Assembly: GCF_035285525.1 (NCBI RefSeq)
Contig: NZ_JAYKGW010000186.1
Location: 20,671-52,670 of the forward strand
Reading direction: 5' to 3'
DNA: 32,000 bases
From: Okeania sp.
GTDB lineage: Bacteria > Cyanobacteriota > Cyanobacteriia > Cyanobacteriales > Microcoleaceae
Part shown: positions 11,761 to 31,792 of the stretch, piece after piece
How positions within the stretch are numbered: position 1 is the stretch's first letter
Layout of the letters: the number at the start of each line of letters is the position of its first letter
Position numbers and translations under genes: made by a program
The notes under the pieces: generated by a model
Told to the model about the DNA's origin: nothing
The model's database searches: none
Seen by the model: the letters and a program-made list of their open reading frames with translations, nothing else

Positions 11761-13215
11761 ATCAATAGGAATGATACCACTAAATATAGCGCTTAAAACT
11801 GTAACGATCTAGTTTTTTGACTCTATATATAGTACCTACCGTGTAAGTCAGGATTTATCGCTACCTCTATAGTTACTAAATCTATAGAAAAATATTCTTT
11901 GACTTAGTTTTAATTAAGTGTTACCTTAATGGGGTGAACTACAACACCCTCTATCCCATTGCTAAAAGCGTTTGGGACTGCTTTTCGTAATATATTTAAA
12001 CTGCCATTGACATCAGCATTATATTTGACACCATTTGAAGCTTGATAAAGTCCTCTTTTCACTCGTTTACCACTAAATCTCTGTTTGACACCTTTTTGAT
12101 AAACTGGTAAATCGTCCCAATCTAAAAAACTAGCTTTTGACGTATAACTTTCTTCATTGATTATTACTTTGATTCCTACTAATTTAGCTTTGTATTTTAG
12201 TTGTTCAATTAACTTGAAAAAAGGAATTTGAACAAAATTTTGATTGTTTTTTCTTCCCAGATTTATACCTTGTTTCCAGTTAGGGTTATTTCCTATTACT
12301 AAAATTCCTATCTGGTTCTCTATGAGACGATTAATAATATATCTGCTAGTCTTATGCAAATAATCATCAATCTTTAAATTTCTTTTTGTCGATAATCTTT
12401 TGATTCGGTTACTACTTTTAGCTTCTTTTAATTCTGATTGTAGTTTACCCTTTTTCTTATTATAGAATTGATTAATTGATTTGACTGGTCTGCCGTTAAT
12501 AATAAAGGGTTGAAAACCTTTTTTATTTGATGTTACAGTCGCCAAATTATTCACTCCCAAATCTACAGAAGCTACATGATATTCTGATAAATCTAATTTG
12601 ACTTCAAGGCATTCGTAAACCACTTCTATCACATAGTAATTCAGCTTAGGAATAATCCTTACTTGTTGCAGAGAATCATAATTTATTTTACTGTCAAAAA
12701 ATAGCTCACTTTTTGATAGTAATATCTTTTTATTTTTAACTAATTGAGGTTTACTAATCGCCTGTTTTGTATAGACTAGAATATTCCTTCCTTTCTTTTT
12801 ATCTTTATATTTTGGCAGTTTGGGACGGCTTTTAAACTTACTTGGGCATTCATTATAAGCTCTTATCGCTTGAAAAAAACTTTGCCAATTTTTATCTAAA
12901 AGAATCAAAACCTGCGCTCGTAACTTTGGCTGGTATTGCTTGATAATCTACTCCCGATTGTAATAATTTTTGAACTTTTTTATAATCTAGATAATTTCCT
13001 TTATTAATAAACTCTTGTCTAACTATGTAGTTAGCCATGTTATAGAGATTTTTCGACAAGAAAGCTAGAGCATCAAGTGATTTATAATTGGGATGATTTT
13101 TTTTAATAATAGTACGTTCTACTAACTGCATTATCCCTCCTTTAAACATTTAACGAGCTATTCTGTTTTCCTTGTTCTTCTTCTGATTCCATAAAAAGGT
13201 AAAAACTCGTATCTT
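11760..13215 (-). mobile_element. TnpB-only (IS1341-like, IS200/IS605 superfamily) insertion sequence; the ends are approximate
   Basis: It contains only a TnpB/OrfB gene and no Y1 transposase gene. The non-coding flanks of roughly 85 bp (5') and roughly 150 bp (3') include a palindromic hairpin, tctatagatttagtaactataga. Confidence 0.5.
11910..13131 (-). pseudogene. tnpB: TnpB (IS605 OrfB-type RNA-guided endonuclease family), frameshifted around 12892-12908
   Basis: The two track ORFs (12892..13149 and 11910..12908) join into one TnpB-like protein: ...IPAKVTS / AQVLILLDKNWQSFFQAIRAYNECPSKFKSRPKLPKYK.... The RuvC-like D (SVDLGVNN), E (INEESYTSK) and D (NADVNGSLNI) are present. The usual CxxC...CxxC zinc finger is absent. 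Confidence 0.85.
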
Positions 13216-20839: not shown

Positions 20840-21263
20840 CTAATCTAAAGCAGGATGCCAAACAACATATACCCAAGGTTTTCTAGCAGCAACTATAACT
20901 AGATTATTAGTTCTTAAAGCTGTAACTCTAGCTCTGGAAACAGCAGTTATACCTTCATTTTTTTCCATCAGAACTCCATTTAAAATGATGCGACCATTCT
21001 TGTTGACGTGGATTAAATAAAGATACTTTTTCCCCAGTCAAAGGATCGATACATTCAATCGTATTACCTTTAAATTCATTGCAGCTTTGACAAGCTAAAC
21101 AAACATTTTCAAAGTTGGTTTCTCCACCTTTTGAAAGAGGATAAATATGGTCGTATGTCATACGAATACCACTATTTATTTCACTGGTTAAACAATAACA
21201 GCAAGAGTGGCGATCGCTTTCTGCTATCTGAAGTCGTAGAGTTTGAGAAATGTAAGAAGACAT
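20840..21263 (-). pseudogene. HNH endonuclease, frameshifted in an A7 run (or a homopolymer sequencing error)
   Basis: The HNH core is CCYCLTSEINSGIRMTYDHIYPLSKGGETNFENVCLACQSCNEFKG. The frame stops at 20955. Removing one A from the run at 20958-20964 continues it as NEGITAVSRARVTALRTNNLVIVAARKPWVYVVWHPALD*, the usual C-terminus of this cyanobacterial HNH family. Confidence 0.8.
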
Positions 21264-22630: not shown

Positions 22631-22768
22631 AGAATAGGGGGGCAGAGAGAGGTGTGCTGCACATCTAACTAAAAATGTAGGTTCGGTTGTAGCTTACTTC
22701 TGTCTGACAGTACGACACTGAAATAAAAAAACTTTTGTTGAGGCGATCGCTTCTTCAACTTCATCAAA

Positions 22769-23185
22769 TTAATCTTTTTCAGATGCTATTATTTCTAATA
22801 AACAACTATAGAAAATTTGAAAACTTTTTGAGGTATTTTCCGTAGAGTTCATATATGGTGAAATATCTCTAGCAGCTCTCAATTTTTCTAATCCTTCTTG
22901 ATGATAACCTTTTCTTTGAAGCACCTCTTGTAAAGCTTCCCAAGTACCACCTTTAATGTTATCTGGGTCAAGATATTTAGATTTTTTATCGAGACTTTTA
23001 GGTACTTTAGGATAAGCTTTAGTCAAAGCTAGAATATCTCCAAAAAACCAAGCTTCTAATTCTTAAATCATAATTTTATTGATTAATTGATATTTCTTTT
23101 TAGCTTTACTTTTTGCCAGAGTTTTTGTCATAAATCCAGCTTCTATAGCAATTTCTTCTAAGTCTTTCTTTAATTTTTTACACCT
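22769..23185 (-). pseudogene. DUF4276 C-terminal fragment (5'-deleted, in-frame TAA at 23063-23065)
   Basis: ...KKLKKDLEEIAIEAGFMTKTLAKSKAKKKYQLINKIMI*ELEAWFFGDILALTKAYPKV...SFQIFYSCLLEIIASEKD is paralogous to 28377..28800. Confidence 0.8.
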
Positions 23186-23247
23186 ACTTCCAGCATTTTA
23201 TAACACTCATCTACAGTAAATAATCGTCGCGATAATTGTACAGACAC
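23183..23247 (-). pseudogene. 5' fragment (about 22 codons) of a Uma2-family gene fused to the DUF4276 fragment
   Basis: It reads VSVQLSRRLFTVDECYKMLEVG. The 53 bp upstream of it (23248-23300) are nearly identical to 24098-24150, upstream of the full Uma2 gene. Confidence 0.65.
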
Positions 23248-23320
23248 TATTAACTCCTTGAGAATAATTACATGAATTTGTTGAGTGTGAAAAATTATAT
23301 TTATTCTAAATATTCTAATT

Positions 23321-23356
23321 AAAAATTTCTGTTAATCTCCCAATATTTCATCAACA
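23321..23356 (-). pseudogene. Isolated 3'-terminal fragment of a Uma2 gene
   Basis: 34 of these 36 nt (23323-23356, aaatttctgttaatctcccaatatttcatcaaca) are identical to 23525-23558, which covers the stop and last codons of the gene at 23534..24097. Confidence 0.7.
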
Positions 23357-23457
23357 AGCGTAGGCCATTGTTGTTCCCGTTAGGGTTGCGCAGCATGGAA
23401 CCGAAACCCAACACAACACCAACAATAGTAAGCTTTTGTTGGGTTGAACGATATACA

Positions 23458-23514
23458 GGATTTTATTTGAAATTATGGTTACAAAATAGAATAAATTTAT
23501 ATAGTATTTAGTAA
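23458..23514 (+). pseudogene. 3'-terminal fragment paralogous to the restriction-endonuclease gene end at 28237-28293
   Basis: GFYLKLWLQNRINLYSI* compares with GFDLKVWLQNRRHLYSIQ*. The adjoining nucleotides tggttacaaaatagaa..atttatatagtatt are shared. Confidence 0.55.
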
Positions 23515-23533
23515 TTCATGTCGAAAATTTCTG

Positions 23534-24097
23534 TTAATCTCCCAATATTTCATCAACAGTAAAAGTCACATTAGGGAAAACTTGAATAGTCATAGTTTCA
23601 CCCTTTTTAAAAGTCTGCATATTCTCATAACCATTTCCTTTAGGTTGTCGATAAACTTCCAGACATTTTTCATTCAGATTTACCAACCAAACTTCCACAA
23701 TATTATTCTCAGCATATAAAGGAACTTTTACTTCTCTGTCATATTTAATTGTTGTATCTGACACCTCTATAAGGAGAAATACATTTTCTGGTTGAGGTTG
23801 TTGAGTCCGATAAAAATCTGGTCGTCGTTGCAGCAAACTTATATCTGGTTGTGGTTCAGAAGTATTATTCAATCTTACAGAATCTTGAATTCCCACAGTA
23901 ACAGTCTGTGCTAAACGCAAAATGAAAAGTTCGGCAAGACATTTCACACAAGCTGAGTGATGAATACCCATAGGGGACATTTTGACAATTTCTCCTCTAA
24001 TTAGTTCTACTCGTTCGTTTTCAGTAAATACTCCTGCATCCAGAATTTTATTATACTGATCTACAGTGAATAGTTTTCGTGATAATTGTACAACCAT
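23534..24097 (-). CDS. Uma2-family (DUF820) PD-(D/E)xK endonuclease
   Basis: 187 aa with the typical pattern (LIRGEIVKMSP, EPQPDISLL, FLLIEVSDTT..YDREVKVPLYAENNIVEVWLVNL). Confidence 0.9.
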   Translation of the reverse strand: MVVQLSRKLFTVDQYNKILDAGVFTENERVELIRGEIVKMSPMGIHHSACVKCLAELFILRLAQTVTVGIQDSVRLNNTSEPQPDISLLQRRPDFYRTQQPQPENVFLLIEVSDTTIKYDREVKVPLYAENNIVEVWLVNLNEKCLEVYRQPKGNGYENMQTFKKGETMTIQVFPNVTFTVDEILGD

Positions 24098-26116: not shown

Positions 26117-27448
26117 ATGATAAATCAACTCGAACAAAAGCAAAATTTATATTTACATATAGACGGAGATATACCTCAAGGTTTAAAGAAAGGTACTTTA
26201 ATTTCATTACAGAGAAGTACCCCAATGAAAATTTATAACTTAGGGTTTCAACCAGCAAAATCAATACCAGAAATACCTCGTTGGTTTCTGCAAAAATATG
26301 CCTCTTTTCCATTTAAAGTTTTAGAACCTTTTGCCGGATCTGGAACCACAATCATAGAATCAATTAAATCTGGAATATCAATTGATTGGCTAGATTATCA
26401 TCCACTGAGTCGTTTAATTTGCCAAGTTAAAACAACTATATTTTCAGTAACCGAAGTTAAAGAGGAAATAAATAAAATCCTTCAGAGTGCTTATAACCAT
26501 CAAAAAGCACCAGAAACTATAGACTTTGCCAATAAAGATTTTTGGTTTCAACAGGGAGTACAAGAAGGTTTAGAAATCCTCAGATATTATATTTTAAATT
26601 CTCCCAAAACTATAGAACCTATTCTGTGGTTAGCATTCGCTTCTACTGTCAGAAAAACATCAAATATGAACGATGGAATGTTACTAGCAGCTAGGCGATC
26701 GCATATTAAAGAAATACCAAATTTATCTAGTTCAGATGTGTTTAAATATTTTGAATTTTATGGCAATAAAGCAATAGATGCAGTTATTGAATGGCATCCT
26801 TTTATTAAGAGAAATATTTCTCTAGTAAAACAATTAGCTATAGCAGATGCTAGAAAAATTACAGGAGATAAATATGATGCAATAATTACCTCTCCACCTT
26901 ATATAAATGCCATAGATTATGTGTGGGCTTCAAAATTTGAACTGCACTGGTTAGGTATGGTAAAAAGTAATCAAGAGAGACTTAATTTATATTCTCAAGA
27001 AATAGGTACAGAAAGAATACCCAAACAAGAATGTAAAGAGCTTGGTAAAACTGGTTATGAATATCTCGATAAGTTAATAGAAGATATTTTCTTTGGTAAA
27101 AAGTATCAAGCTTCTCAAGGACAAAATCAACTTAGAGCAAGAGTTGTATACAAATATTTTATGGATATGCAGCAACATTTTAAAAGCTGTTTTTCCTGTT
27201 TGAAACCGGGAGGATATTATTGTTTTTCCATCGGCGATTTGAGTAAAATTTGTGGAGTTGATATTCCAGTTGCCAGTATTTTAACAGAAATTGCTTGTGA
27301 TGTTGGTTTTCAGGAAGAATTTCATTTTCATTTATTGTTGAAAAACCGCAAATTGAATATTCCTAGAAATGTAAATTGGGCAAGTACAATCAAACATGAT
27401 ACGATAGTTGTTTTAGAAAAACCTCTTTCATTAATGGATAATGGATAA
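26117..27448 (+). CDS. Amino-DNA methyltransferase (N6-adenine or N4-cytosine), motif order I then IV
   Basis: The AdoMet motif LEPFAGSGTTIIES is at aa 69-82 and the catalytic motif IITSPPYINAIDY is at aa 256-268. The roughly 185-aa spacing suggests alpha-class architecture. Confidence 0.88.
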   Translation: MINQLEQKQNLYLHIDGDIPQGLKKGTLISLQRSTPMKIYNLGFQPAKSIPEIPRWFLQKYASFPFKVLEPFAGSGTTIIESIKSGISIDWLDYHPLSRLICQVKTTIFSVTEVKEEINKILQSAYNHQKAPETIDFANKDFWFQQGVQEGLEILRYYILNSPKTIEPILWLAFASTVRKTSNMNDGMLLAARRSHIKEIPNLSSSDVFKYFEFYGNKAIDAVIEWHPFIKRNISLVKQLAIADARKITGDKYDAIITSPPYINAIDYVWASKFELHWLGMVKSNQERLNLYSQEIGTERIPKQECKELGKTGYEYLDKLIEDIFFGKKYQASQGQNQLRARVVYKYFMDMQQHFKSCFSCLKPGGYYCFSIGDLSKICGVDIPVASILTEIACDVGFQEEFHFHLLLKNRKLNIPRNVNWASTIKHDTIVVLEKPLSLMDNG

Positions 27449-27606
27449 TTGATAATTGCCTATCTCTAAAAAGGATAAAATTGACTAAAAGGAAAAAAAA
27501 ATAAATTTTTTCCCATTGACAAGGAGAGGCTGTTAATTTGACTTAATTAATAAAGCCTTTATCTAAAACTAAAATAAATAGCTGATGGCTAAATGCTTAC
27601 TGCTGA

Positions 27607-28293
27607 ATGCTTATAATGAATAATAATCAACTTAATAATTCTTTAGATATAATTTTACAAAAATATAGCCAATCTTTTGCCAGCAAAGTATTTCCTCAAG
27701 AGTCTTTAGAGGCAGATGATTTGATGCTTGTATTTGGATTAAATCAAGAAATTAAAGCTAGAAATAAACAATATTGGGGAAGAGAACTAGGAATGTGTTG
27801 GGAAAGAATAGTTAAAGAAATTTGTAGACAAACTTGCTATCATTTTAATGAAGCTATTCGAGATGGTCATTTCAGTTATCAGTTATCAGTTATCAGTACC
27901 TCGTAGTTGTTGCCAGAAACTTGAAATACTGAAGTTAATTTTTTTTCATTCCCTTAAAAGGGGAGACTTTAGACCAAATTTTTCGATAATGATGAATTAT
28001 GTGACTTTATCGTTGGGTTAGATACAATAGATACAAAATATAGAATTGGTTCAGGAGATTCAGGAACTCTCAAGAAATTCAGGCAGTATGCAGCTAGACT
28101 AAATACTCTAGGATATAATCCTGTTTTACTAATACTCAGAAATGATAGCTTGAGGCAAACTATCAATACTTGTTCTATAGCAGGTTGGCAAGTAATGTCA
28201 GGAAATGATACCTTTAATTACATAAATAAAACTACAGGATTTGACTTAAAAGTATGGTTACAAAATAGAAGACATTTATATAGTATTCAGTAA
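27607..28293 (+). pseudogene. Putative type II restriction endonuclease (PD-(D/E)xK-like) interrupted by a roughly 105-nt repeat insertion
   Basis: The first half (27607-27867) ends ...CYHFNEAIRDG. Then come the heptamer repeat and a hairpin carrying four in-frame stops. The same frame reopens at 27973 without any start codon for 106 codons: TKFFDNDELCDFIVGLDTIDTKYRIGSGDSGTLKKF...VWLQNRRHLYSIQ*. The segment D..(x9)..DTK is nuclease-motif-like. The gene sits immediately downstream of the methyltransferase. Confidence 0.65.
27868..27972. repeat. Insertion: (CAGTTAT)x3 STRR plus a cccttaaaagggg hairpin
   Basis: ttcagttatcagttatcagtacctc also occurs (reverse complement) at 4148-4175. tttt.at.cccttaaaaggggag also occurs at 4657-4679, inside the disrupted xisH. 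Confidence 0.65.
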
Positions 28294-28294
28294 T

Positions 28295-28349
28295 TAATGT
28301 TGGAAATTTGTATTAATTTACTAATATTTCATAAACAGTAAAAGTTACA
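28295..28349 (-). pseudogene. 3'-terminal remnant of a Uma2 gene
   Basis: aatatttcataaacagtaaaagttaca (28323-28349) matches the 3' end of the Uma2 gene at 30311-30337 at 25/27, and also 23545-23571. Confidence 0.6.
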
Positions 28350-28376
28350 GGCGATCGCTTCTTCAAATCCATCAAA

Positions 28377-29007
28377 TTAATTTTTTTCATATTCGATTAT
28401 TTCCAATAAACAACGATAGAAAACTTGAAAACTTTTTGAGGTATTTTCTGTAGGATTCATGTGGGGTGAAATATCTCTAGCAGCTCTCAATTTTTCTAAT
28501 CCTCCTTGATGATAACCTTTTCCTTGAAGCACTTTTTCTAAAGCTTCCCAAGTACCACCTTTAATGTCATCTGGGTCACGATATTTAGCATTTTGACTGA
28601 GACTTTTAGATACTTTAGGATAAGCTTTAGTCAAAGCTGGAATATCTCCAAAAAACCAAGCTTCTAATTCTTCAATCATAATTCTATTAATTAATTGATA
28701 TTTATTTTTACTTTGACTATTTGCCAGAGATTTTGTGAAAAATCCAGCTTTGATAGCAATTTATTCTAACTGTTGTTTCAATTTTTGACAATCTTGATTA
28801 TCTCTATCTAATAAAACTATAATTATCCAATCATTAGGTATCCATTTTTTATATCCTTTTAACCGTCCTGGTAGCTTAGAAAGTAAATCTTGTTTACCCT
28901 GAAAAGAGTGGGTATCAAAACTTATCAAATCACCCATAATTTTTGGTAATAAGTTACAGAGAGTTTGCTTCGTTGAAAAAATCTTCCACTAGAAATTCAA
29001 TATGCAC
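28377..29007 (-). pseudogene. DUF4276-family protein (Toprim-like by inference), with a frameshift in the 28976-28981 run and TAA at 28761-28763
   Basis: It reads VHIEFLVEDF, then frameshift, then STKQTLCNLLPKIMGDLISFDTHSFQGKQDLLSKLPGRLKGYKKWIPNDWIIIVLLDRDNQDCQKLKQQLE*IAIKAGFFTKSLANSQSKNKYQLINRIMIEELEAWFFGD.... Confidence 0.8.
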
Positions 29008-29029
29008 TCGTTAGTTACTCCTATAATCA

Positions 29030-30253
29030 CTAATTTCTAGCTTGATTTTTACGCGGTGCGCCTTGATTTTTTAAAGGATTTCCAAATTCAAATTGGTCTT
29101 CCATCCATAAATTACCTAAAGATGCACCTTGCTCAATAAATTCTTTAATACCTAGCATTTCGCTAGCACGTTTAGCCTGAGTATAACCATTTTCATCTCG
29201 GTAAAGTATCCATAATTCTTGGGATCTAATCCCATCAATAAAAAATGGAGAATGAGTTGTTACCATAAGTTGAGTATTAGCTGAAGCTGCACGACATTCT
29301 TCAGCAAGTTCCGGTAATAAACGAGGATGCAAATGATTTTCTGGTTCTTCAATACCAATAAGTTGTGGTGGTTCTGGGTCATGTAAAAAAGTGAGATAAG
29401 CTAACATTTTTAAAGTACCATCAGAGGCAAATTTTGCTAAGATTGGTGTAGCAAAAGGAGCATCTTTTATTTGTAATAAAAGTCTGCCATCTTGCATCAT
29501 TGAAGCTTCAACATTTTCTAAACGAGGAACTCGACAAGAAAGAATATTAAGAATTTTTTCGAGTCGTTCTGGATGCTGTTCACTAAGATATTGAATAACA
29601 TTAGGTAAATTATCACCTGTTGATGATAATCTTTCTTGGGCACCAGCTTCAGGAGTGGTGCGAGTATTATCTGCACTTAAATAGGAAAGATGCCAACCTG
29701 TAATAAATTTTCTCAAGGCACTAACACGAGGATGTTTAGCAAATTGTCCGAGGGTACTTACTGCTAAAAATTCAGCAGATTCTAACTTTTCATCTATACG
29801 TTCATCTTTTTCATCAGGCATTTCTCCAGTAATTACTTTTCCTTCCCCTTCTTTAAAGTTTAAAAACTTAAAAATTCCTCCTCTTTTTCCTCTTCTCCAT
29901 TGTAGCCATTCTTCGGCAACATAAGGACCTTTTGTTCTTTCCGCAATGGCAAGATGATATACAATTAAAGGAGAGTCTTTTGTTTCTCGATATTTAAGTT
30001 CAAATACTATATTTCCTTCAGAATCTCTAGTTCTTAATTCTCTAAATCTACCCCTTTTTTCCCAAGCTTTCCTGAGTCCATCTGTAAAACATTCCGATAA
30101 AAATGCAAAGACATCAAATATGGTAGATTTACCACTACCATTAGGACCTAAAAATACAGTTAATGGAGTTATTTTTTTTAGCTCTAAATCACGCAAAGCG
30201 CGATAGTTTTGCACTCGTAGATATTCAATTCTGGGAATAGATTGTTTAGCCAT
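29030..30253 (-). CDS. ABC/AAA_21-type ATPase (OLD/AriA/GajA-like N-terminal ATPase architecture)
   Basis: Walker A is [13 protein letters not shown]. Walker B/D-loop is [15 protein letters not shown]. The H-loop is [11 protein letters not shown]. The start [17 protein letters not shown] is typical of this family. The ORF is intact at 407 aa. Confidence 0.88.
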
Positions 30254-30297
30254 TATTTTAGTTTAACTTTACTTTTTTGATCCGATTTTTTTACGGC

Positions 30298-30864
30298 TCA
30301 AGATTCTCCCAATATTTCATCAACAGTAAAAGTTGCATTAGGCAAAGCTTGAATTTTCACAGTTTCACCCCTTTGAAAATTCTGCACAATTTCATAACCA
30401 TTTGCAGTAGGTTTTCGGTAAACTTCCAGACATTCTTGAGTTAGATTTACTAACCAAACTTCAACAATATTATTCTCAGCATACAAAGGAACTTTTACTT
30501 CTCTGTCATATTTAATTGTTGTATCTGAAACCTCTATCAGGAGAAATACATTTTCTGGTTGAGGATGTTGAGTCCGATACAAACTTGGCCCTCGTTGCAG
30601 CACACTGATATCTGGTTCTGGTTCAGAATTATCGTTCAATCTTATAGGATCTTGAATCCCAACAGTAACAGTCTTTGCTAAACCCAAAATGAAAAGTTCG
30701 GCAAGATGTTTCACACAATTTGCGTGACGAATACCAACTGGGGACATTTTGATAATTTCTCCTCGGATTAGTTCTACTCGTTTATTTTCAGTTAAAATTC
30801 CTGCTTCCAGCATTTTATAATAGTCGTCTACAGTAAATAGTTGTCGCAATAATTCTACAGACAT
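30298..30864 (-). CDS. Uma2-family (DUF820) PD-(D/E)xK endonuclease
   Basis: 188 aa, a paralog of 23534..24097. It lies 44 nt upstream of the ATPase start on the same strand. Confidence 0.9.
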   Translation of the reverse strand: MSVELLRQLFTVDDYYKMLEAGILTENKRVELIRGEIIKMSPVGIRHANCVKHLAELFILGLAKTVTVGIQDPIRLNDNSEPEPDISVLQRGPSLYRTQHPQPENVFLLIEVSDTTIKYDREVKVPLYAENNIVEVWLVNLTQECLEVYRKPTANGYEIVQNFQRGETVKIQALPNATFTVDEILGES

Positions 30865-30870
30865 TACAGA

Positions 30871-30876
30871 CTCCTT
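30871..30876 (-). promoter_or_regulatory. Shine-Dalgarno AAGGAG, 6 nt upstream of the Uma2 ATG
   Basis: The minus strand reads aaggagtctgtaATG, within the 22-nt spacer after the ATP-grasp stop. Confidence 0.5.
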
Positions 30877-30886
30877 GAAAATAACT

Positions 30887-31792
30887 TTAACTTGTTAATA
30901 ACTCTATCAAATTTTGAGTTATCGGACAACCTGTTTGCTTTTCAAAATGAAGAAACATCGGACTAAAATTCGCCTCTAGAAAAATATATTCTCCATTAGG
31001 TTGCAATCGCCAATCAATACCAGTCCATTTTAAACCGAATGCTTTAGTAATAGTTAAACATTGTTTTTTAATATCCTTCGGTGTTTCTAAATAGATTAAT
31101 TTTGCTTGTTTATCTTCCCGAAAATCTAAAGAACTACTCCTAATTTCAGCAGAATAAACTTTTTCCCCAATAACGTAACTGCGAATATTTGTACCAGGAA
31201 TATATTCTTGAATAGTTACAGGAGAAATGCTTAAAGCTAAATTCATTCGATTAATTTCTAAATGTTCTTTCGTTAAAAACTGAGCATGAGAACCACCATA
31301 AACAGGTTTAAAAATTACCTCCGAATAAGATTGATAAAAATTGAGAATTTCCTCCGCATCATTAGTTACTAATGTCGCTGGAATATTCACACCTATTTTA
31401 TTAGCCAAACTTAATTGCAATGGTTTCTCTTTATGAAATTGGTAAGCTTCCCAATCATTCACCCATTTCTCTGGTTTTGAGCGCATAAAAGAACGTAACA
31501 AACTAATAGAATCATTTATTGCTATTGTGTTTGGATATGAATTAGTTGATTTAGGAACATTTACTCCAGAAAAAGTCCGCCAGAAAATTTTATTGATATC
31601 TGCTAAATCCCATTTTTTACCATCTGGAAATGTTAAACATCCTGTCTGAATAATAGGTTGCCAAGATATTTTTAATTTAGTCGGAAATAAACGAGTATCT
31701 AAATATTCAACAGTTATTCCTTTTTCTATCAGAGATTGTTTTAAATGAGCAGCATGAATATCTTCACTACTACTCAAAATTAAAATTTTCAT
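30887..31792 (-). CDS. ATP-grasp enzyme resembling MvdC/MvdD/MdnC-type ribosomal-peptide (graspetide) maturases
   Basis: The pattern matches my memory of MdnC: N-terminal ILILSS..D.....L...L..KG..V.YLDTRLFPT, then HKEKPLQLSLANKIGVNIPATLVTNDAEEILNF, PVTIQEYIPG.NIRSYVIGEKVYSAEI, DFRED, and GEYIFLEANFSPMFLHFEKQTGCPI. Confidence 0.75.
   Translation of the reverse strand: MKILILSSSEDIHAAHLKQSLIEKGITVEYLDTRLFPTKLKISWQPIIQTGCLTFPDGKKWDLADINKIFWRTFSGVNVPKSTNSYPNTIAINDSISLLRSFMRSKPEKWVNDWEAYQFHKEKPLQLSLANKIGVNIPATLVTNDAEEILNFYQSYSEVIFKPVYGGSHAQFLTKEHLEINRMNLALSISPVTIQEYIPGTNIRSYVIGEKVYSAEIRSSSLDFREDKQAKLIYLETPKDIKKQCLTITKAFGLKWTGIDWRLQPNGEYIFLEANFSPMFLHFEKQTGCPITQNLIELLTS

Follow-up and report, generated by a model that had tools for sequence, protein, structure and literature searches.

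An HEC-01 cassette with an inactivated nuclease gene in an Okeania genome, most likely a decayed copy of an already catalogued candidate system

A pair of genes encoding an ABC-type ATPase and a DUF4276 protein lies on the minus strand of a 32,000-nucleotide stretch of an Okeania sp. genome (assembly GCF_035285525.1, contig NZ_JAYKGW010000186.1, positions 20,671 to 52,670), here called the window. The pair is the already catalogued candidate system HEC-01, the Toprim nature of which has also been published, and it is not a new system. The copy in the window is very probably a decayed HEC-01 cassette, in which the nuclease is dead, the ATPase is intact and the neighbouring genes are bystanders; as a module it has most likely stopped working, through recent decay. 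A +1 frameshift and a nonsense codon inactivate the nuclease gene, so that this genome has no means of making the effector and the module is most likely inert.

Assignment to HEC-01

When compared to the PADLOC models, the ATPase matches HEC-01A (PDLC04182) at E 3.2e-170, with its residues 7-392 aligned to positions 2-404 of the 406 in the profile, and the partner protein, once its two lesions are repaired, matches HEC-01B (PDLC04202) at E 1.2e-90. All other models for defence ATPases, namely AriA, AbiLi, mad3, and PtuA, give the ATPase much lower scores than HEC-01A does. As in HEC-01, the genes of the pair lie side by side in the same direction, but only one of them is intact. The names of the PADLOC models are swapped in one HEC-01 subtype, where PDLC04144, named HEC-01B, matches the ATPase (E 8e-119) and PDLC04143, named HEC-01A, matches the DUF4276 protein (E 9e-30).

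HEC-01 (Hma-embedded candidate 01) was described as an ABC ATPase together with a TOPRIM protein, the latter having a metal-binding site in common with Burkholderia OLD (Payne et al., 2024, bioRxiv 10.1101/2024.01.29.577857). In a later study of Menshen, both DUF4276 and RloB were assigned to the Toprim superfamily, and Mad4 was given as a DUF4276 homolog (PMC12065111, 2025). DUF4276 also appears as a domain annotation in the ATPase tree of the PARIS paper (PMC11464382). A first-pass annotation of the window, made from the sequence without database searches, had given the pair as one for which no experimentally characterized system was known and had named prior cataloguing as one result that would refute its reading. 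This is what was found, since the pair is the HEC-01 of PADLOC, published and tested in two studies.

The ATPase gene, HEC-01A (29030-30253, minus strand), is intact and encodes 407 amino acids identical to those of MEB3342660.1 (NCBI, Okeania sp.). The protein matches Pfam AAA_21 (E 7.4e-29) and AAA_15 (E 6.6e-21). It contains a Walker A motif at residues 36-44, a signature-like SDGT at 277-280, the Walker B motif LIGIEEPE at 298-305, and an H-loop, TTHS, at 332-335. The matches and motifs together bear out the first-pass identification of an ABC-type ATPase. Of the columns conserved at ≥95% in 67 orthologs, the window protein retains 155 out of 156.

Lesions in the DUF4276 Gene

HEC-01B, the pseudogene of a DUF4276 Toprim-like nuclease, occupies 28377-29007 on the minus strand and begins with a GTG codon at 29007. 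Its open reading frames (ORFs) are broken into pieces, among them one of 58 amino acids at 28761-28937 and one of 100 amino acids at 28377-28679. The lesions were called by alignment against four intact or near-intact orthologous genes. A T6 homopolymer at 28976-28981 (minus strand) contains one T too many when aligned at the DNA level with the related loci L002-L007, which gives a +1 frameshift. An in-frame TAA at 28761-28763 (minus strand) replaces a lysine codon, which is AAA in L002-L004; at this place the homologs read LEKIA. Both the one-nucleotide homopolymer frameshift and the TAA had been noticed in the first-pass annotation, and the alignment to orthologs agrees with it. The GTG start is not a third lesion, since GTG or TTG is the start codon of DUF4276 orthologs too.

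When one T is dropped and the TAA is read through, the repaired gene encodes 209 amino acids. This protein matches Pfam DUF4276 along its whole length (E 1.7e-29), has kept the IEFLVED and DRD motifs, and aligns end to end with intact homologs of 203-210 amino acids, the best of which, P0001, is 81% identical. It retains all of the 65 columns conserved at ≥95%. With 155 of 156 conserved columns still present in the ATPase and 65 of 65 in the repaired DUF4276 protein, the lesions in the nuclease gene are taken to be recent. The Logan contig SRR19514071 agrees with the window at 100% identity over 28643-30514, both lesions included, but it may share its reads with the NCBI assembly and so is not proven to be independent confirmation.

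Structure and Conserved Residues of DUF4276

The first-pass annotation had pointed to a glutamate and a DxD motif in the DUF4276 protein as a Toprim signature. In an alignment of 71 DUF4276 homologs E8, D67, D69, E112, E113, and E115 are invariant, and all six are kept in the window copy. The AlphaFold2 model of the intact ortholog P0001 (mean pLDDT 85, pTM 0.82) has strands at residues 2-7, 29-34, 60-67, and 105-111 with helices in between, and the glutamate follows strand 1 (2-7) and the DxD strand 3 (60-67), as in the Toprim motif. Foldseek gave two top matches for this model in PDB, namely 2p62, an uncharacterized Pyrococcus protein, and 6nk8. The latter, which ranks second, is the Toprim-containing C-terminal region of the Burkholderia pseudomallei OLD protein, and it is matched with a probability of 0.99, an E-value of 3.8e-3 and a TM-score of 0.49-0.50. 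Among weak matches to viral models are a phage RloB-like protein (probability 0.77) and the Toprim domain of DnaG. The modelled structure thus gives supportive but moderate evidence for a Toprim fold in DUF4276, in agreement with two independent papers, and the Toprim-like character proposed in the first-pass annotation is upheld to this extent.

Limits of the Cassette

The four genes at 28377-31792 are all found on the minus strand and are backed by homology, so that chance ORFs are ruled out. The first encodes an ATP-grasp protein of 301 amino acids (30887-31792), the second a Uma2 protein of the PD-(D/E)xK family with 188 amino acids (30298-30864; Pfam Uma2 E 2.3e-33), and these are followed by HEC-01A and HEC-01B. 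Counted from the ATP-grasp gene, the intergenic distances are 22 nucleotides with an AAGGAG, 44 nucleotides, and 22 nucleotides with a TAGGAG, and the tight spacing given in the first-pass annotation is therefore correct. A reading of the four genes as one functional unit does not stand, since the Uma2 and ATP-grasp genes are pre-existing neighbours, as a relative without the pair shows, and are absent from this position in all other loci examined.

The relative in question is a Trichodesmium sp. represented by contig L082, where orthologs of the neighbouring genes of the window are found in the same order and the pair is absent. The nucleotide identity between this contig and the window is 92.6% for a DNA methylase gene, 88% for Uma2, and 90% for the ATP-grasp gene. 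In L082 an intact gene of 185 codons, a candidate restriction-enzyme gene, comes right after the methylase gene, and there is nothing between this gene and Uma2. Relative to L082 the window has 1955 extra nucleotides, 28350-30304. These are flanked by the two minus-strand copies of a 33-nucleotide direct repeat, both of which align to positions 5895-5927 of L082. The left copy (30305-30337) is the 3' end of the intact Uma2 gene, while the right copy (28317-28349) consists of a degenerate Uma2 3' end followed by sequence natively found downstream of Uma2.

The limits of the cassette are also seen when the window is compared to HEC-01 copies in Trichodesmium, Dapis, Okeania, and a Microcoleaceae metagenome-assembled genome (MAG). 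The nucleotide identity of 87-90% is confined to 30275-28349, and the flanks are unrelated. The HEC-01 cassette of about 1.93 kb (28349-30275, minus strand) is thus made up of a 22-nucleotide leader, the ATPase gene, a 22-nucleotide spacer, the DUF4276 gene, and a 28-nucleotide trailer that ends in the HIP1 site GCGATCGC (28351-28358). Since the similarity goes no further than this and L082 lacks the pair, the latter is a discrete cassette that is differently placed across genomes. The 33-nucleotide repeat would fit a single-crossover integration via short Uma2 homology, or a recombinational loss in the relative. A search in four close relatives showed neither target-site duplications nor repeats flanking the cassette, and the 33-nucleotide repeat is therefore specific to the site in the window and not a general signature of transposition.

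Gene Neighbourhoods in Other Genomes

The neighbourhoods were surveyed in the best 80 loci from a scan with the DUF4276 alignment, in which each species was represented by one genome. An ortholog of the ATPase, 54-90% identical, is found directly upstream on the same strand in all of the 76 loci that have upstream DNA, and the coupling of the two genes for which a test had been suggested in the first-pass annotation is thereby established. The 76 loci cover cyanobacteria, Nitrospirota, Acidobacteriota, Planctomycetota, candidate phyla, and archaea of the genus Methanothrix.

When it comes to the other genes of the cluster this is not the case. Uma2 is found within 10 kb in three of the 80 loci, each time in another position, and never in the upstream position (0/76), while ATP-grasp and methylase genes were found within 10 kb in none of the 80. 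The upstream neighbours of the pair vary, and a Pfam scan identified sensor kinases, transporters, and methyltransferases among them. The ATP-grasp protein of the window matches Pfam RimK (E 1.9e-11) and, below the cut-off of the model, NCBIfam TIGR04187 (E 2.4e-42), and it has no match in PADLOC. On these profile matches it is classified as a ligase of the RimK/MvdD-like type involved in maturation of ribosomally synthesized and post-translationally modified peptides (RiPPs), and as a neighbour unrelated to the module. Judged from gene order and homology, the four-gene cluster is a juxtaposition in which only the ATPase and DUF4276 genes constitute a unit.

The gene directly downstream of HEC-01B encodes a type I restriction HsdR protein on the same strand in nine of 69 loci. 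The HEC-01 clade sampled here is thus sometimes embedded in type I restriction-modification (R-M) operons, which resembles the "embedded" contexts that Payne et al. described. An HsdR-type downstream context was recorded for L006, L038, L040, L047, L054, L061, L073, L074, L077, L078, and others. Most contexts of the pair, the cyanobacterial ones above all, are made up of non-defence genes. The defence-island context described in the first-pass annotation is accordingly thin; the remainder of the window is housekeeping, and an R-M system of the kind found here adjoins the pair in this genome only and has a broken restriction enzyme.

Decay of HEC-01 in Related Loci

Stops or frameshifts in HEC-01A and/or HEC-01B were found in 11 of the 80 loci (L002, L003, L005, L012, L015, L023, L031, L032, L035, L056, and L070), mostly from filamentous cyanobacteria; ten of them are among the approximately 37 cyanobacterial loci. 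Some of these broken copies could be MAG errors. In L035, from Okeania SIO2F4, an insertion of about 4 kb interrupts the DUF4276 gene. Broken copies are frequent enough in cyanobacteria (about 10 of roughly 37) to hint that the nuclease carries a fitness cost, and HEC-01 nucleases may be repeatedly knocked out in filamentous cyanobacteria through self-toxicity, the codon of one catalytic glutamate being hit in three separate copies.

The window contains a second, truncated copy of the module (22741-24097, minus strand), which was found by self-comparison and has 85-89% nucleotide identity to the first. It consists of an intact Uma2 gene (23534-24097) and a 5' fragment of Uma2 (23183-23267) fused to the 3' half of a DUF4276 gene (22741-23182); the ATPase gene is deleted, and there is a TAA at 23063-23065. 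On the right this copy is bounded by the same HIP1 site as the main one. The TAA replaces the GAA codon of the invariant Glu112, the first glutamate of IEELEAWFFGD, and the same change is found in Dapis sp. (L005, at about 10346) and Oscillatoria sp. (L031, at about 10340). The second copy is 88% identical to the Dapis copy at the nucleotide level, which is no closer than to the main copy in the window, and the shared stop is therefore not obviously due to descent. By a rough estimate the probability of three Glu112 stops arising by chance is about 0.1.

Other Features of the Window

The R-M system next to the pair is found on the plus strand. It consists of an intact type II DNA methyltransferase gene (26117-27448, 443 amino acids; PADLOC MTase_II E 1.9e-47) and a candidate for the cognate restriction enzyme (27612-28293), which is the ortholog of the intact 185-codon gene of L082. 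The latter is a pseudogene in the window, split by an insert of 116 nucleotides (27871-27986), across which the reading frame has stops. The insert has a (TTATCAG)n head and resembles a miniature inverted-repeat transposable element, and pieces of it recur in the Okeania and Microcoleaceae loci L035, L003, and L004. Between the methylase and restriction genes the window has 176 nucleotides (27436-27611) that are extra relative to the Trichodesmium ortholog. The restriction-enzyme candidate has no family match in Pfam or PADLOC, and the 185-amino acid protein (L082 5314-5871; window 27612-28293) may represent an unclassified family of restriction endonucleases.

Other genes in the window are housekeeping genes, encoding SurE, MutL, a Mur ligase, a mechanosensitive channel, and a GTPase. 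In addition, there is a TnpB/IS605 OrfB-like ORF of 332 amino acids (11910-12908, minus strand) and a small HNH endonuclease ORF of 102 amino acids (20955-21263, minus strand). Scans of the whole 32 kb for tRNA genes and Rfam families detected none, and promoter and terminator scans of the window gave nothing relevant.

Function of Intact Copies and Alternative Explanations

By analogy to PARIS AriA/AriB, OLD, AbiL, and MADS Mad3/Mad4, the ATPase of an intact HEC-01 copy may form an oligomer that senses infection and holds or regulates the Toprim nuclease. A phage cue would then lead to ATP binding or hydrolysis that frees or activates the nuclease, which in turn might cut DNA or RNA through a metal site made up of Glu8, Asp67-x-Asp69, and Glu112/113/115, so that phage growth would be stopped.

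Several points weigh against the interpretation presented here. This sensor-releases-nuclease model is taken over from PARIS, and no biochemical mechanism for any HEC-01 system was found in the literature searched. The evidence for a role in defence is mixed, as the HEC-01 representative of Payne et al. (10.1101/2024.01.29.577857) gave no protection from the phages tested, while in a cold-seep metagenome study one representative is reported to have protected Escherichia coli B from at least one of T4, T5, and T7. The fold match of DUF4276 is moderate (Foldseek E 4e-3, TM about 0.5), and a DUF4276 profile search of the PDB sequences gave no Toprim match but only weak, spurious ones (a CBF3 subunit, E 0.03); the sequence by itself thus gives no link to solved Toprim structures. 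The homopolymer frameshift taken by itself could be a sequencing error, although the TAA is of another kind. Finally, the indel may be either an insertion here or a loss in Trichodesmium.

That the module should still be active, with the orphaned ATPase either acting alone or re-paired with the adjacent Uma2 nuclease, is very unlikely. The ATPase has an intact ORF with 155 of its 156 conserved columns, but the DUF4276 remnant is equally conserved, and the state of the ATPase therefore reflects recent decay and not retained selection. The Uma2 gene is also intact, is co-directional and ends 44 nucleotides upstream; however, L082 has it at this site with no ATPase, and it is found in the upstream position in none of the 76 other loci. 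Both module copies in the window have the start of a Uma2 gene directly upstream, but these copies stem from one duplication and count as one event. The conservation data give no positive evidence for a new role of the ATPase. If it were kept through work with Uma2, this would be a case of natural effector swapping on a sensor of the OLD/PARIS type, which is an equally slim prospect.

It is no more credible that the DUF4276 protein is still expressed through programmed frameshifting at the T-run and readthrough of the stop, or that the lesions are assembly errors. The catalytic residues are all retained and the T6 homopolymer is a classic site of both slippage and error, but the orthologs have one T fewer and are read straight through, so that there is no conserved recoding site. 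Nor is the TAA in place of a lysine codon a homopolymer error, and the Logan contig has the same sequence. Decay is furthermore seen nearby, in the split restriction enzyme and the truncated second copy, and comparable lesions are found in about 11 of the 80 related loci. Least probable of all is a new composite defence system encoded by the ATP-grasp, Uma2, ATPase, and DUF4276 genes as one operon, which the short spacers, ribosome-binding sites and common strand would suggest, but which is contradicted by the presence of ATP-grasp and Uma2 without the pair in L082, by cassette similarity to other genomes that ends 22 nucleotides upstream of the ATPase start, by the survey (ATP-grasp and methylase in 0/80 loci within 10 kb, Uma2 in 3/80 and elsewhere), and by the resemblance of the ATP-grasp protein to RiPP maturases and not to defence proteins.

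A decayed HEC-01 cassette among bystanders is thus the preferred explanation. As a consequence annotations should not treat the four-gene cluster as a system and should flag both the DUF4276 gene and the adjacent restriction-enzyme gene as pseudogenes. The locus has little weight as a discovery, because the pair has been named before as a candidate system and the Toprim nature of its nuclease is published. The comparison of sites with and without the pair cleanly delimits, at about 1.93 kb, a mobile HEC-01 cassette of filamentous marine cyanobacteria, and the rate of broken copies could guide the choice of intact orthologs, such as those of Scytonema, Gloeothece PCC 7424, and Geminocystis, for work on the HEC-01 mechanism.

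Comparison with Known Systems

The window pair has the same layout as HEC-01, in that the gene for a small TOPRIM-like protein follows the ATPase gene and the two are adjacent and co-directional. It differs in that the B gene is a pseudogene and the cassette is placed outside any Hma system.

The proteins of the OLD family (P2 Old, BpOLD, and GajA) also combine an ABC ATPase with a Toprim domain that has glutamate and DxD metal ligands. However, OLD and GajA are single fused polypeptides, whereas the window pair and the pairs of all 76 loci are encoded by separate ORFs, and no fused ATPase-Toprim polypeptide was found at any of them.

AbiL (AbiLi/AbiLii) and MADS3-4 were given as further systems that pair an ABC ATPase with a Toprim protein in the PARIS paper (PMC11464382), and both Mad3/Mad4 and AbiLi/AbiLii are pairs of the same type as that in the window. 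In PADLOC the window ATPase matches mad3 at E 6e-21 and AbiLi at E 9e-27. The NCBIfam model for MAD3 (NF047739) gives 121.8 bits compared to a cut-off of 420, and no other mad genes are found near the pair, whose neighbours are only Uma2, ATP-grasp and the type II methylase. The partner in AbiL, AbiLii, is presumably of the RloB type and not a DUF4276 protein.

PARIS likewise consists of two genes, which encode an ABC ATPase of the AAA_15/21 type (AriA) and a stand-alone nuclease of the Toprim superfamily (AriB, DUF4435). The window ATPase matches the AriA models at E 1e-29, which is no better than its generic match to AAA_21, and the partner, being a DUF4276 protein, has no AriB or DUF4435 match in PADLOC or Pfam. 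When it comes to mechanism, PARIS is the best analogue of the window pair.

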